Of a stretch of 64,000 nt of DNA, positions 24,001-36,000 are shown one piece after another. The stretch comes from Syntrophales bacterium (lineage in GTDB: Bacteria > Desulfobacterota > Syntrophia > Syntrophales > UBA6807), in assembly GCA_040767195.1 (NCBI GenBank), contig JAXGPA010000007.1, forward strand, positions 52,764-116,763. The letters are read 5' to 3'. The first letter of the stretch is position 1. Each line of letters opens with the position of its first letter. Made by a program: the position numbers.

Positions 24001-27000
24001 GGTCCGGCAAAGACGGGATGTACGTGGGCCGCCTCAACCTGTCCTGCACGGGTTCCATGACGGGGTTTCTGGATGCCGAAGAAGAAAGCCGTCTCCACCT
24101 GGAACTGCAGAACCTGGAACAGCGGATAGCCGCCCTCGTGAAAGCCCGGCAAAACAAGGACACCCCCGCCCTGGAGAAAATGATCGGCGACCTGTTATCG
24201 AGAAAATCAGCCCTGGAAGAAAAATTGACGGCCATCTGCGCCTGCGGGACGGAGACGGGAAAATTCACATGGGATCTTGTTCCCATGGAAAGCGACATCC
24301 CCGGGGATGAGACCGTTCTCGACTGGATCCGGGAGGCGGGCCTGGAGGGATCGTCGTGACCGGAAGGATCCCCAGCTGACATGGGGAAGACGAAAAAAAA
24401 CGCGTTTCAGGCGGCCCTGCTCATCCTCGGGAGCATCCTCGCGGCGACGGCCTTCAACGCCGTGAGCCCGTCAGGCCTTCCATGGCTGGGCGACTGGTCA
24501 CCCGGGGCGGTCGCCGGGCTCTACCTGGAAGACCTGGACGAGATCACCGCTGACAGGGTTCTTGTGCTGGAGCGGGAGGGTCTCCTTGTCTTTCTCGACC
24601 CCCAAGACCCCGTGTTTTACAGCGAGGATCCTCCGCCCGGTTCCATCAATGTCACGCCCCGGAACGTCCCGGCCATGATCGATGAAATCAGGGTTCTCGC
24701 CGGTGCGGGATTGAAGCTCGTCATCCTCTGCGACGGCGGCCGCTGTACCCGGGGAATGGAACTGGCCCGGGTTCTCGAGAGCCGTGGATTTCGTGATTTC
24801 AAAATTTTCAGGAACGGGGAGTCGAGAAGCTCGGAGAAGACGGACGGCGCGTCGGTCCCGGGAAAGGAGAACTCGTGAACCGGGCGCGCCGGGTGAGAGA
24901 AAAATGGTTTGCGGCGGTTCTGCTTGTTTCACGGCTTTTTCTCGGAGGGGTCTTCCTCTTCTCCGGCGTGACGAAAATCCTCGAGCCCGGGGGGTTCGCC
25001 CTTTCCATCTATCATTATCAGCTCCTGCCCGATCTCCTCGTCAACCCGGCGGCCATCATACTGCCCTGGGTCGAGGTAATCTGCGGTATGGCCCTGATCC
25101 TGCGCTGGTGGGTCGGCGGCGCCTCTCTTGTCGTCACGGGGCTTCTGCTCGTCTTTCTGATGGCCCTCGCCATCACCCTCGTCAGGGGCCTCGACATCTC
25201 CTGCGGCTGTTTTTCCTCGACAGGGGAAGGAAAAATATCCTGGTGGTATCTCCTCCGGGACTTCTCCCTTTTCGCCATGGGAATCCTCATTCTTCTTTTT
25301 CACGACAGGGAAACCGGCGGGCCGCCGGCTGAAGCCTGAATTCTTTCCTTTTTAAAAAGCCTTTGAATCCTGACTGTTAACATCTTTGGGCGGATGCCAT
25401 GTCAGCGCCGGGAATTTTTTTTTTCAAACCGGTTGCGTTTCAATTCCTTTTATGTATACTGTAACTGCCCCTTTTAGCATTCAGGATCTGAAGAGAGGGG
25501 CGCGCACCCAATCAGACAGAGGCCGCGTACAGGTTGTTTCTCATGCACACGGGGCGGGACGTCATTACCGGAAGCCCGTTTTAGGCAGCAAGCAAGCGAA
25601 ACCCGCCCGGAAAGCCGTTTCAGGAAAGGCCATCTCGGAAAGGATGCGTTTCTTCCACGGGACCTGGAATTCGACCCTTGAAGTCGTCAGACCCACCGGG
25701 GGGAAAGGGTTCGGCGGTGCCTGTTTCTTTTTTGCGTCGACACGAAAATCCAAAAGAACAACGGATTCGGGGTTGTCTTCCCCGACAGTGCAGGACCGAT
25801 TTCACGGAAAGGCCCGAATGAAATGATGCCCATTTTTGTCAGTCTTCCCGAGGCCATGGTCAAGCTGAAAGTGGTGACGATCAAGGGGTCCTTTGAAAAG
25901 GCCCTTTCCACGCTCCAGGGCCTGGGTGTTCTTCACATCGAGGAAGCCAAGGAACTGACCCCCGTCGAGAAGGAAGCCATCGAAGACCGGCGGGCCCAGG
26001 TCAGGAAGGCCCTGGCCTCTGTTCAGGACATCCTGTCCTTTCTGCCGGGGGAAAGAGAGGTCTTCATCGGGGATGTCCCTCCTACCGTCGATGAAGCGCT
26101 GCGAGGGGTGGAAAAACTTCAAAACGAGATTTCAAGGCGCCTGTCGGACATTCAGAAGACGGAGCAGGAAATTTCCAGGTCCGGAGACCTGGAACGCTAC
26201 CTGGCCGTTCTCCCCGGCAGCGGGGGTATGTCCCTGCGGGACTTTCACTACGACGGGCCCTATCTTTTCACCGCCGTTTATGTCTTCACGGAAGAAGCCT
26301 CTCGGACCTTCCGGGAGAAGTCTTCCGCTTATATCATCGATCTCGTGAGCGCTTCCGCGGGCAACGAGGCCGTCGTCTTTGTGGTGGCCAGGAAGGATGA
26401 CAGAAAGGTCCTGGAAGACACCGCGTCGGCCCTGGGGGCCGCCGCGATCGCCGTGCCGGAAGGGGACCGGGCGCTTGCCGACTTTCTCGGAGAGGAAAGA
26501 AAGCGGCAGGAAGACAGGGAAGGCCGCCTGGCCCGCCTGCGAGCGGACCTCCAGGCGTGCATCCTGGAGAATCTGCCCGACCTGGCCCAGCACCGGGAAA
26601 TTCTGGCGGCGGAATATGAGCGCCTTTCAGCCCTGGACTGGGCCAGCGGAACCTCTTACGTGACCCTCATGGAGGGCTGGATTCCTAAAGGAGACGTGGA
26701 AAACGCGACAAGCCGCCTCCGGGAAGCCGTGCCTTACAGTTTCGTCGATACGAGACCCCCGGAAAGGGGTGAAGAGCCGCCCACGCGGCTCCGGAACCCG
26801 AAGGGGGTCCGGCCTTTCGAAGTGGTCGTCAAGCTCTTCAGCATTCCCCGCTATGGCGAGTGGGACCCCACGCCGGTGGTGGCCTATTTCTTCGCGTTTT
26901 TCTTCGGTATCATGCTGAACGACATGGTCTACGCCGTGGGACTTCTTCTCCTGGCCCGTTTTTTCCTGGACAAGCTCGTCGACGACCCGACAAGCGAGGG

Positions 27001-33000: not shown

Positions 33001-36000
33001 CTCGCCACCATGTACGAGCGGGCGGGGCGGATCTCGGGCAAGGAGGGGTCGGTGACGATCCTTCCCATCCTCACCATGCCCGACGACGACATCACCCACC
33101 CGATCCCGGACCTGACGGGGTACATCACCGAGGGGCAGATCGTCCTCTCCCGGCCCCTCGAAAGGAAGCGGATCTACCCGCCCATCGACGTGTTCCTCTC
33201 ACTGTCGAGGATGATGAAAGAGGGTATCGGCGAGGGGAACACCCGGGAAGACCACAACAACGTTTTCATGCAGTCCTATGCCATGTACGCCGAGGGCAAT
33301 TACCTTCGGGAGATTTCCACGGTCATCGGGTCCGACGCCCTGAGCGACCGGGACCGGATTTATCTTTCCGCGTCGGACCGCTTCGAGCGGGAATTCATTT
33401 CCCAGGGTGAATTTGAGCGCCGGTCCGTCGAGGAAACCCTGGAAATCGCCTGGAATATCTTTTCAATGGTACCCCAGGAAGATCTCAAGCTGATCCAGGA
33501 GAAGTTCATCCAGAAGTATCTGCCGAAGAAAGGAAAGACGTCGTAAGATGGCAGCGAAGATCCAGGTCACGCGGCCCACCAAGATCGAGCTGGCCCGCCT
33601 CAAGCGGCGGTACCGGCTTGCGACGCGAATCCAGAAGATCGTCAAGGACCGGCTTTCCATTCTTGTCATGGAGTTTCTCGAAACGGTCAAGGAATGCGCC
33701 ATCGTGAAGGAGCGTCAGGCGTCGGAATTCAACGAGGCCTACCGGGCCCTTTCCATGACCAGCGGGTATCTCGGGTCGGAGGAACTGGAAAAGGACCTTT
33801 TCGCCGTGGAGATGCCCCTGAAAATGGTGGGAAAGACCCGGAACGTGGCGGGAGTTCGCATTCCTCTCTTCGAGGTGGAGCGGGATGAAACCGTGGCCCT
33901 GAAAACCGCCGTCCGCCCCGGAATGACCGCCGTCGAGGAGGACACCATCACCGCGGCAAGGCGCTGCCTTGAATCGATCATCGAACTCGCGGAACTGGAG
34001 AATTCTCTCGAGCTGCTCGGGTCGGAAATCAACAAGGTGAAGCGGATCAACAACGCCCTGGAATACATCGTCATCCCGGGGCTGAATGCCACCATCCGCT
34101 ACCTCAACATGAAATTCGAGGAGCGGGACCGGGAGGAAAACGCCCGGCTGAAGTACGTCAAGCTCCTCATCGAGAAGCGGGAAGCCTATGCCTATTGATG
34201 ACGACCCGTCCACCCGGGACAGCGGGCTCGAGGGGGCCGTGGCGGAGGATTTCCGGATTCTCAACACCCAGGCCCCCCGGCGGAAGAAGTCCCTGGCGGC
34301 GCTGCTTCGGGAACCCCACCCGTCGGTGCCCTGCCATGACGGGAACGACCATCACTTCCGGAAAGGCGAGCTCGAAAGGCTGGCCGCGATTCTCGGGGAG
34401 GAGGAGAGGGAGGAACTTCTTCTTCCCCTGCTCATCGAAATATCCGGGGAGGCCCGGGAACTGAAAGTTCGGACGAAAACGGGCGTGGAGGCCAAGGTTC
34501 TCGAATCCCTTCTCCGGATGCCCGTGGACCGCCGGAAAGGCGAGATATTCCTTTCCCGGAAGCAGCTCCCGGTGATACGGCGGCTTTTGAAGACATCGAC
34601 GCAGTATATTTTTCTCGTATAACCGATCCCGCAGGAGGTAGGATCCATGGCGGAACCCATCCAGACGACCATAGGAAACATGGAAAAGGAAGCAGAAAAG
34701 ATCCTCGGGGAGGCGAAGGAAAATGCCCGGAAACTCCTGGAGGAGGGGAGAGTCAAATCAAAGGACATCCTCTCGCAATCCGTTCCCATGGACGACATTG
34801 AAAAGGAAAAGAAGAGGATCCTGCAGGAGGCCGACGAAGAGGCGAAGATACGCCGGGACACCTCGGAGAAGCGGGTCGCCCAGGTCCGGGCCACGGCCCC
34901 GGACAAGCGGGAAGCGGAAGTCCGGAACCTCCTGGACGCCCTCCAGCCTTCCAAGGCCGCCCGTTAAAAAAAGAACGGAGTCAGGTTCCGGATGCCGGCG
35001 GCCCGTCGAAAAATCCGGATTCGGGGCCTGACTTTCCGCTGTTCCTGTCCGTTCCCTCACCCCTCACCCGCCCGACATCGGGCCCGTGTTCAAAATCCAT
35101 AACATGTAATCCCGATGGTTCGACCTGAATGGGGTTGCCCGGGTCTGTTTCCAAGAGGTAAAAAACGTCTCGTTGACATTGTCCAGGAAATACTATATTA
35201 CCTTTTGGCGATATCAACAGGCCGCTCTCCGCCTTTGCCCCGGTTTGCATGGATTCAGGGCACCTTTCGAGACGGCGAGACGGATCATTTTATTGAAAGG
35301 GAGACGGTTCCATGGGTATAATGGGATTTAAGAGGATCGCCACGATTTTTTTCGTTTCGGTCTGTTTATGGGCGGGAAACAGCCTCATCGCCGGGCAGGC
35401 CGGGGGAGCGGTGGAAGAGGGGGGTCCGGGTCACTACGTCCAAGTTTACTATTTCCACGGCAAGGTGCGTTGTCACTCTTGCAACATGATCGAAAAACTG
35501 ACTCTCGAAACGGTCCGGGCCTTCTTTCCTGAGGAGCTTGAGAAAGGTCGCCTGAAACTGTCCGTTGTCAATGTCAGTGACGGGGAAAACGAGCACTTTG
35601 TTCAAGATTACAGGCTTTACTCACAGTCTGTCATCTTGTCGGAAATGAAGGACGGAAAGCAGGTGAGTTGGAAGAACCTGATCCGGGTCTGGGAACTTCT
35701 TAACGATGAAAGTCAGTTCAAAGACTACGTCCGGGGAGAAGTAAGCACTTTCCTGGAGAAGACAAATGAATGAATTTGTCATCGGTTTAGGTATGGCGGC
35801 CTGGTTCGGGATCCTGACCTCCATAAGCCCCTGTCCCCTGGCCTCGAATATCGCCGCCGTTTCCTATATCGGCGGGCAGCAACAAGGGCCCCGGCGGGTT
35901 CTTCTCGCCGGGGCGCTCTACACGGCGGGAAGGGCCCTGACGTACACCCTCCTGGGGGCGGTTCTGGTCTCCAGCACAGGGTATATTTCCCCGGTGGCTA

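Follow-up and report, generated by a model that had tools for sequence, protein, structure and literature searches.

A DUF61 gene behind atpD in a bacterial A-type ATP synthase operon: a putative rotor-shaft assembly factor or regulator

In a Syntrophales bacterium, an archaeal-type ATP synthase operon carries a gene for a DUF61 protein directly behind the gene for the rotor shaft, subunit D, and this raises the question of whether the protein takes part in making or running the enzyme. We analyzed the locus within a 64,000-nt stretch of DNA (the window), to which all positions refer.

The operon and its last gene

The survey's finding had described an operon of I, K, E, C, F, A, B and D with a DUF61 gene overlapping atpD, in a genome that also encodes an F-type ATP synthase. 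The operon was confirmed by the ORFs and their families, and an F-type cluster of b', b, delta, alpha, gamma, beta and epsilon genes was seen on contig C1. Based on ORFs and profile matches, the A-type operon was complete, in the order I-K-E-C-F-A-B-D-DUF61-H:

25823..27820, + strand, subunit I (a), membrane stator; PF01496, E 9.7e-24; NCBIfam PRK05771
27834..28301, + strand, subunit K (c), V-type four-helix proteolipid; PF00137; NF006219 above cut-off
28315..28911, + strand, subunit E, peripheral stalk; PF01991, E 2.8e-22
28908..29951, + strand, subunit C (d), rotor socket; PF01992, E 7.5e-38
29948..30304, + strand, subunit F; PF01990, E 1.2e-11
30389..32143, + strand, subunit A, catalytic; NF003220 above cut-off; translation with P-loop and GER motif
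32140..33546, + strand, subunit B; NF003235 above cut-off
33548..34198, + strand, subunit D, central rotor shaft; PF01813, E 3.2e-40; predicted partner of DUF61
34188..34622, + strand, DUF61 (UPF0216) protein, 144 aa; PF01886; putative D-binding assembly chaperone or regulator
34188..34198, + strand, overlap of atpD and the DUF61 gene, 11 nt, read from the sequence
34647..34967, + strand, likely subunit H (G), peripheral-stalk partner of E, 106 aa; alignment, position and sub-cut-off matches

Nine A1AO subunit types (A, B, C, D, E, F, H/G, I and K) were present with intact frames, eight of them recognized by family matches and H/G counted only via alignment, position and matches below cut-off. 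Subunit K contained one carboxylate and, when aligned with E. hirae NtpK (2BL2), kept the T-Q..Y, Q and E residues, which we take to be the Na+ ligands of NtpK; as judged from sequence, the enzyme, with its V-type c subunit, is probably Na+-coupled. Terminator and promoter signals at the operon showed no excess over shuffled sequences.

The 106-aa gene had been considered family-less, a description that did not hold, because its matches to AhaH and PRK08404, its position and its relation to MJ0223 indicate that it most likely encodes the seemingly absent stalk subunit H/G. AhaH was matched by 22 and PRK08404 by 20 of the 23 aligned members of its group, all below the cut-offs (19.6 bits for the protein studied here, versus 48.5 and 107, respectively), and coiled-coil families such as DivIVA likewise matched all the members. 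The gene was colinear with archaeal genes at the canonical place upstream of I, the profile of its group matched MJ0223, and a search across the genome yielded no better H/G candidate. The interpretation of 34647-34967 as a novel gene was consequently rejected. With H/G as the most likely last gene, DUF61 would be an internal gene of the operon, flanked by D and H. An RsbRD_N-like sensor-type gene separated DUF61 from H in 17 of 23 loci of the same order. An ORF of about 98 aa 3' of DUF61 in Hadarchaeota was also considered as subunit H and was rejected, being hydrophobic and without a family match.

Family, junction and genomic linkage of DUF61

The protein matched PF01886 with an E value of 6.3e-25 and 88.1 bits, against a gathering cut-off of 27, over positions 4-127 of 127; NCBIfam PRK04115 gave 96.9, under its cut-off of 114. 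The Sulfolobus protein SSO0941 (5VFK, an NMR structure) had been proposed as the sole clear fold match, and this was borne out by Foldseek (E 3.9e-7), the profile comparison (E 2.1e-8) and the structural alignment, where its Z of 15.6 was followed by a next best of 4.2. The common fold extended over 118 residues with an rmsd of 3.0, whereas identity was 14% and, in the profile alignment, SSO0941 lacked the T-Q-Y-x-F end. This end belongs to the conserved terminus R131-x-x-L-x-T-x-T-Q-Y140-x-F142, while the first 15 residues were variable and modeled with low confidence. The SSO0941 gene sits in the box C/D operon. A gpW-like profile matched weakly (E 0.38). No usable match was found in the ESM Atlas and none in the plasmid search, no similarity to A or B was detected, and no connection between DUF61 and the ATPase was found in the literature searched. 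Among 8000 long candidates scored, no D-DUF61 fusion was found, which is weak evidence; a long 'D' at locus L228 was rejected as a fusion candidate because it was an upstream open-frame artefact.

At the junction, the DUF61 ATG sits 11 nt within atpD, and translational coupling of the two genes is plausible. The overlap had been given as 11-29 nt; with scripted ORF calls, 23 of the 24 bacterial loci in the same ATPase clade had 11 nt, and the larger values resulted from an alternative upstream start, as in locus L019. This is a single inherited junction, and it was thus not accepted as independent evidence. Elsewhere the spacing between D and DUF61 was mostly +4 (Chloroflexota-like contigs) and -4 or +2 (Hadarchaeota).

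Within the own order, DUF61 followed D in 23 of the 24 genomes with this D clade, the 24th being cut by a contig end, and it was found in none of the other 127 genomes, including eight with only a distant V-type D. The search for members of this ATPase clade devoid of DUF61 was confined to this order. DUF61 is under purifying selection, with a median dN/dS of 0.17, compared with 0.12 for D and 0.21 for H. Trees of DUF61 and subunit B agreed in their deep shape, and the ATPase grouped with those of Desulfurococcales and Chloroflexota-like contigs. The concern that one transfer had been counted many times was justified: all the bacterial DUF61 copies formed one clade, so that their linkage amounts to one or two observations rather than dozens. 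The notion that ATPase-linked DUF61 is a subfamily of its own was discarded, since the label required 19 changes on a 134-row tree, in which some short Methanobacteria loci were wrongly tagged 'other'.

Beyond these bacteria, the linkage of atpD and DUF61 is old. D was immediately 5' of DUF61 in all 29 Hadarchaeota loci called, even where A and B had been relocated to a divergent unit. The same arrangement was seen in 11 of 23 cases in Hydrothermarchaeota and, among metagenome loci of the Chloroflexota-like kind, in 74 of 80. In five Thermoproteota genomes D-DUF61-H-I headed the operon, an order present in some Desulfurococcales, and in Methanobacteria and Methanopyri the order was D-DUF22-(0-2 genes)-DUF61. 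Linkage was rare across the sampled Thermoproteota, with 6 of 87, and Halobacteriota, with 1 of 66 loci (the second sampling of the latter contributed just 16 new loci), in line with the earlier caution that many archaeal DUF61 genes sit elsewhere.

These other places offer a rival explanation, in which DUF61 is a nucleic-acid- or translation-related protein that hitch-hikes at the tail of a strongly expressed operon; we regard it as unlikely. It agrees with a second conserved context, Nop5-fibrillarin-DUF61 in Thermoproteota, where a fibrillarin-like gene preceded DUF61 in 11 of the best 30 loci, and with many others (DUF62, HD hydrolase, thermosome, FtsJ). The median pI of DUF61, about 9, and its C-terminal half, which weakly resembles domains of aIF1/SUI1 and of splicing endonucleases (Z 2.8-4.2, E above 0.2; for the SUI1 fold, Z 2.8 over 67 residues and E 0.25 or worse) point in the same direction. 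However, DUF61 stayed intact under selection through its transfer to bacteria, in which we know of no box C/D particles, D remained its neighbor despite operon rearrangements, and no DUF61 occurred without this ATPase in the 127 genomes of the own order.

The predicted D-DUF61 complex and possible roles

Prediction of a complex of D, F and DUF61 gave a score of 0.84, and the three controls all scored 0.00. Of 157 solved complexes, 116 attained the score mark, as against 2 of 215 mismatched pairs; this calibration is rough here, with our own alignments and three chains. The model runs had at least 80% of the contacts in common, the partner pLDDT was at least 82, and no F residue was among the contacts. 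In the model, DUF61 covers residues 21-49, 94-109 and 167-175 of D, its N-terminal helix (13-25) touches D at the crown-level positions 28-32 and 167, and a salt bridge connects D-E42 to R131, a pair that was E-R in 130 of 130 linked pairs; E42 is present also in D of T. thermophilus, whose genome lacks DUF61. The most conserved residues of the DUF61 family build the predicted interface, and the mean conservation was 0.57 for interface columns and 0.56 for the rest.

The hitch-hiker explanation would put the score down to the stickiness of a coiled coil and treat the pass as false. It is favored by the coevolution analysis, since the predicted contacts did not stand out in inter-protein MI-APC with 130 pairs, which was dominated by phylogeny (mean z -0.07); the scores of 0.00 in all three controls and the position of the most conserved residues speak against it. 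The absence of similarity to A or B, and a sole solved relative that is a single chain, make it unlikely that the model passed by memory of a like complex. The footprint is also the most exposed hydrophobic face of D once A3B3 is omitted from the model, and docking there is expected anyway. Taken together, we think there is a good chance, well above even, that DUF61 binds D at all.

In E. hirae, D residues L28, L29, R165, R166, A169 and L170 lie at the A/B C-terminal interface (PMC3772951). They align to I31, V32, R166, I167, A170 and L171 of the D studied here, and the predicted footprint holds five of these six. As this footprint is a surface occupied by A3B3, and six of eight D-bearing control genomes lacked DUF61, a permanent extra subunit is unlikely. 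The earlier reading of DUF61 as an accessory, assembly or regulatory subunit was thus strengthened with regard to a functional link, by the multi-phylum linkage, the selection and the complex model, and weakened with regard to permanent membership; a role as an assembly factor or regulator fits.

Our preferred reading, to which we give a probability of about one half, is that DUF61 is a dedicated partner of D that acts as an assembly chaperone and is released upon insertion of the shaft. DUF61 would be translated straight after D from one common message, and its N-terminal helix and conserved R131...F142 end, with the salt bridge, would clamp D at the hydrophobic face of its N-terminal helix (about 21-49), at the C-terminal helix opposite (167-175) and at the short beta-hairpin (94-109). 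Since the clamped face is the one that the A3B3 C-terminal domains later grip, and the F- and C-binding parts of D stay unoccupied, DUF61 could hold D or DF in a soluble, unpaired state while the shaft is still free, and entry of the shaft into the hexamer would displace it. The genes, their linkage, the selection and the matching trees are observations, and the contact with D is predicted by the model; we infer the overlap with the A3B3 site, the displacement and the chaperone role. DUF61 would be helpful but not essential, consistent with its repeated loss or relocation. Counting against this reading are the rare linkage in Thermoproteota and Halobacteriota, the control genomes devoid of DUF61, and E. 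hirae V1, which was reconstituted from purified DF and A3B3, with no such factor needed (PMC3772951).

The same predicted footprint would serve a rotor-bound regulator or inhibitor, whose core sits on D 34-49 and the beta-hairpin just under the A3B3 crown, with the N-terminal helix wedged between D and the open A/B C-terminal interface to stop wasteful ATP hydrolysis; alternatively, it might sequester the shaft after A1 dissociation. The reach of helix 13-25 to the crown, the energy-limited anaerobes among the carriers and the sensor-type gene between DUF61 and H are compatible with this, but the core of the 144-aa protein covers the five A3B3-contact positions, suggesting a clash, and the N-terminal 15 residues are the variable, low-confidence ones. 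We hold this option to be doubtful. Even less credible, indeed improbable, is that one A1AO lineage has DUF61 as a permanent, stoichiometric subunit that rotates with the rotor. The place between D and H, the tight junctions and a dN/dS similar to that of H would suit it, but its footprint overlaps the A3B3 contact and DUF61 is not everywhere the enzyme is, as would be expected of a stoichiometric subunit. Besides the control genomes, it was not found in 45/101, 114/251 and 112/201 archaeal genomes sampled, incomplete ones included. Moreover, the M. jannaschii genome, a control, carries DUF61, yet its purified A1AO reportedly has nine subunit types.

Considering chaperone and brake together, it is probable, though somewhat less so than binding to D itself, that DUF61 has since ancient times been dedicated to the archaeal ATP synthase; it would predate the split of Thermoproteota and the euryarchaeal phyla, cap the shaft where A3B3 grips it, and have survived two successive transfers, from Thermoproteota to Chloroflexota-like bacteria and from these to Syntrophales.

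Comparison with known systems

Dedicated assembly factors and inhibitors exist for F-type and eukaryotic V-type enzymes, and we know of none for the A-type enzyme. A shaft-binding factor, if real, would fill this gap in A1AO assembly or control of ATP waste, would assign a role to an archaeal family that is widespread and structurally solved, and might aid heterologous A1AO production; the residue-level prediction concerns R131/E42, Y140 and F142.

An archaeal-type H+ ATPase has already been reported in the deep-sea Chloroflexi DscP2 (PMC5736913); the available part of that report names subunits ABCDEFI and mentions neither DUF61 nor onward transfer to Syntrophales. The A1AO of Eubacterium callanderi, with a V-type c subunit, makes ATP from 87 mV (PMC9171764). 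Like that enzyme and E. hirae NtpK, the one studied here has a four-helix, one-site c subunit, and E. callanderi also harbors an archaeal-type enzyme in a bacterium. The present enzyme differs in its separate lineage, its order I-K-E-C-F-A-B-D-DUF61-H and its coexistence with an F-type cluster. These syntrophs hold, beside the F-type enzyme, a probably Na+-coupled A-type one of a design that makes ATP at very low driving force.

In F-type enzymes, epsilon, zeta and IF1 block ATP hydrolysis; they are small proteins at the interface of shaft and catalytic crown, as proposed for DUF61, and no sequence or fold match to DUF61 was listed for them. Atp11/Atp12, AtpI/UncI, Vma12-Vma22 and RAVE are rotary-ATPase assembly factors of bacteria or eukaryotes, acting on alpha/beta, the c-ring, Vo or V1-Vo joining. 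None was among the family or fold matches of DUF61, and in archaeal-type enzymes we know of no factor that caps D, the shaft. The proposed role nevertheless resembles theirs: these factors are dedicated, bind an unassembled part and are gone from the finished enzyme, as DUF61 would be.

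Composition of the A-type ATPase operon

Family profiles and translation identified an intact A-type ATPase operon in the window, with the following genes in and behind it:

25823-34198, + strand, I-K-E-C-F-A-B-D operon, intact
34188-34622, + strand, DUF61 (PF01886), directly after D
34647-34967, + strand, 106-aa open reading frame, after DUF61
35312-39408, thioredoxin-like and DsbD-like genes (family search), then permease, small-redox-protein and ArsR-like genes (reading of translations), then enolase

As the survey had described, DUF61 comes right after D and its start overlaps the end of atpD, by 11 nt in the window sequence. 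Each operon gene is single copy in this genome, where an F-type ATPase cluster is also present, on contig C1. Third-position GC was 0.72-0.85 in the operon against 0.86 in enolase, and the operon thus does not look recent. Enolase lies directly after the ATPase operon in many relatives.

Subunit K (27834-28301) has four helices and one carboxylate, and keeps the Na+ ligands of NtpK. For an A1AO enzyme whose c subunit is of this type, ATP synthesis from 87 mV upwards is reported (PMC9171764). ATP synthesis at low driving force would, by analogy, suit a syntroph; ATP-driven pumping is equally possible, because of the F-type cluster. An archaeal-type ATPase is already known in deep-sea Chloroflexi (PMC5736913).

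The stalk subunit H/G is missing from the eight genes I to D. The 106-aa gene had been considered family-less, a description that no longer holds: it aligns nearly gap-free with 22 relatives, including archaeal genes in the canonical place before atpI, and 22 of the 23 aligned members matched AhaH and 20 matched PRK08404. All of these scores stay under the cut-offs, and generic coiled-coil families match as well. The family profile also matched MJ0223, presumably subunit H, and in a genome scan it matched only the 106-aa frame and subunit E. This frame is most likely subunit H/G, judging from sequence, and read in this way it places DUF61 between two ATPase genes, D and H.

Contigs from four RNA-library runs (two studies) span D-DUF61-H, which is consistent with expression; neither transcription nor a single transcript follows from them. 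Contigs of two runs from one study, X1 and X3, share an end at 25602, about 220 nt 5' of atpI, and an X1 contig stops at 35020, just 3' of H, a weak hint at the limits of the operon.

Distribution and history of the D-DUF61 pair

PF01886 was found in 23 of 151 Syntrophales genomes, in three families and each time directly after D. A close copy of D (at least 63%) was present in 24 of the same genomes, i.e., the 23 carriers and one in which D is cut by the contig end, and DUF61 was not found in the eight genomes with a distant D only or in the 119 without D. Beside this clade's D, seven genomes (G076, G090, G103, G128, G073, G058, G040) have another D of V type that is only distantly similar (23-28% identity), and some may have three rotary ATPases. 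In the phylum sample, DUF61 occurred in 3/401 genomes, and the one outside Syntrophales has the full operon. A full Syntrophales-type operon in a genome labelled Bacteriovoracaceae (locus L175, G155:C61) represents either onward transfer or a binning error. Median dN/dS (Nei-Gojobori) was 0.17 for DUF61 and 0.12 for D in 21 unsaturated, non-independent pairs among 24 loci, and 0.21 for H in 13 pairs, likewise non-independent.

Among the best 80 of 178 confirmed metagenome loci, a set selected via DUF61 and a motif and hence blind to operons lacking DUF61, D was directly upstream in 67 by gene calls and in seven more by tblastn; one had D 430 nt upstream, three had no upstream DNA, and two showed no D in the 368 and 437 nt available. 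We call these loci Chloroflexota-like on the basis of one taxon name, Chloroflexi, among ten D clusters looked up. In three of these operons (L326, L352, L355) K (c) is present in two or three copies in tandem, possibly giving mixed c-rings. A conserved gene of 147 aa, RsbRD_N/HisK_N-like (globin-like), separates DUF61 from H in 17 of 23 Syntrophales loci (e.g., L006:1009-1452, - strand), and more distant copies (~25%) occur close to the operon in L279 and L175; it is absent from the window and was not found in this genome with the same query. Its product is a possible sensor for this ATPase.

Linkage extends to archaea (phylum names for the sampled groups are inferred). Hadarchaeota had DUF61 in 36/41 genomes, with D directly upstream in all 29 loci called (30 fetched), even where A and B have moved elsewhere. 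Hadarchaeota also have a conserved hydrophobic protein of ~98 aa, without family match, right after DUF61 (L030:1327-1623, L041, L079, L095, L099, L102), and several of them a separate divergent A-B unit. In Hydrothermarchaeota, 23/32 genomes had DUF61, directly after D in 11/23. Methanobacteriota had it in 56/101; among the top 30 loci, D is at most 1.5 kb away in 14, separated from DUF61 by DUF22 and never adjacent. Like DUF61, DUF22 is an uncharacterised family associated with the end of the A-ATPase operon, and it occupies this place in Methanobacteria, Methanopyri and a few more (L028:9107-9502, L031, L054, L080, L082, L268). A or B frames of ~1000-1100 aa in L031, L054, L056 and L082 probably contain inteins.

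As the survey had warned, many archaeal DUF61 genes are located elsewhere. In Thermoproteota, 87/201 genomes had DUF61 over cut-off, adjoining D in only 6/87, and in Halobacteriota 136/251, directly after D in 1/66 loci seen. Five of the six adjacent Thermoproteota loci read D-DUF61-H-I-K-E-C-F-A-B, a circular permutation of the window order, and in two further loci DUF61 is divergent from H. Fourteen control genomes had D in eight and DUF61 in two, and a motif-biased pattern scan gave the same distribution among the matches listed. This multi-phylum pattern indicates that the linkage is ancient, lies on both sides of the archaeal tree, has often been lost, and is dispensable for the enzyme. 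DUF61 as a permanent subunit fits less well and is very improbable.

A gene with an RNA role that merely hitch-hikes is also a less good fit, and unlikely. A fibrillarin-like gene sits just before DUF61 in 11 of the top 30 Thermoproteota loci; in the fold searches, aIF1/SUI1 and splicing-endonuclease domains scored at background. In agreement with the survey, profile and fold searches gave the Sulfolobus protein SSO0941 (5VFK) as sole clear match (predicted structure, pLDDT 82.7).

Trees of 39 operon-linked loci, by quick search for B and careful search for DUF61 and both rooted on euryarchaeal rows, were congruent. One side held Desulfurococcales-type and bacterial rows (100/99 for DUF61), the bacterial rows together made up one clade in both, and the Syntrophales group was nested among or beside Chloroflexota-like rows, L350 being its sister in each tree. 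Read most simply, this would mean one transfer from Thermoproteota to bacteria and one onward, DUF61 being carried both times, as the survey proposed for Syntrophales; the trees are thinly sampled and, within Thermoproteota, limited to rows of the Desulfurococcales type. Its caution that the Syntrophales linkage may be one inherited transfer was well placed, given the single bacterial clade and shared junction: the 11-nt overlap, specific to the Syntrophales clade, occurs in 23/24 loci called. Most Chloroflexota-like loci have a spacing of +4, and Hadarchaeota one of -4 or +2, and such tight junctions would fit translational coupling.

Predicted complex and role of DUF61

The complex of D, F and DUF61 was predicted with our own alignments of 60, 32 and 60 rows, respectively. 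The complex scored 0.84, 0.82 and 0.84 in its runs, and among three controls the highest score was 0.00. The pass mark is reached by 116/157 solved complexes and 2/215 mismatched pairs, counts only rough for this job. At least 80% of contacts were common to the runs, with partner pLDDT of at least 82. In the model, DUF61 touches D only (D 21-49, 94-109, 167-175; DUF61 13-28, 44-58, 85-88, 124-144), and the tightest pairs involve the residues best conserved across the family (R131, Y140 and F142). The pair D-E42/DUF61-R131 is E-R in 130/130 linked pairs. R131 is present in 78/78 linked and 42/63 unlinked rows, 36 rows coming from a pattern that requires R131 and the remainder being confounded by kinship. 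Two results speak against the interface: inter-protein mutual information gave no signal at the predicted contacts, and E42 is also kept in T. thermophilus D. The model supports binding of DUF61 to D, through a predicted interface that is specific and testable. R131 and Y140 are both lost (0/10) in a long-branch Halobacteriota clade (L266, L267, L269, L271, L273-L278) that is not linked to the ATPase and groups with Thermoproteota copies; it may have a different function.

Alam et al. (PMC3772951) list six residues of E. hirae D where it meets the C-terminal domains of A/B; these map to I31, V32, R166, I167, A170 and L171 by the 3AON alignment, with a tag offset of 7 consistent across all six. 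Five of these A3B3-contact positions are inside the modelled DUF61 footprint, and the short helix entering subunit C (about residues 73-81; PMC4355294) is outside it. In the model, DUF61 thus occupies the section of the shaft gripped by the hexamer, and the rotor-side contacts stay free. We infer, with a probability of about one half, that DUF61 is a chaperone that would hold new D or DF and leave when the shaft is inserted into the hexamer. A less likely alternative is a brake that stays on the rotor and inserts its N-terminal helix into the crown. Of the survey's accessory, assembly or regulatory subunit, the ATPase link is now better supported, and a permanent subunit is unlikely.

Searches on DUF61 names and identifiers, ATPase accessory factors and the box C/D context returned no DUF61-ATP synthase link, which the SSO0941 structure paper, other subscription papers or database context pages may mention; in the parts consulted, PMC1852104 only tabulates the family, and 5VFK serves as a test protein in PMC11602711. 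Collectively, the D-DUF61 association is real, ancient and apparently undescribed. As a dedicated rotary-ATPase factor, DUF61 would be of a known kind, with a new target and from a new family.
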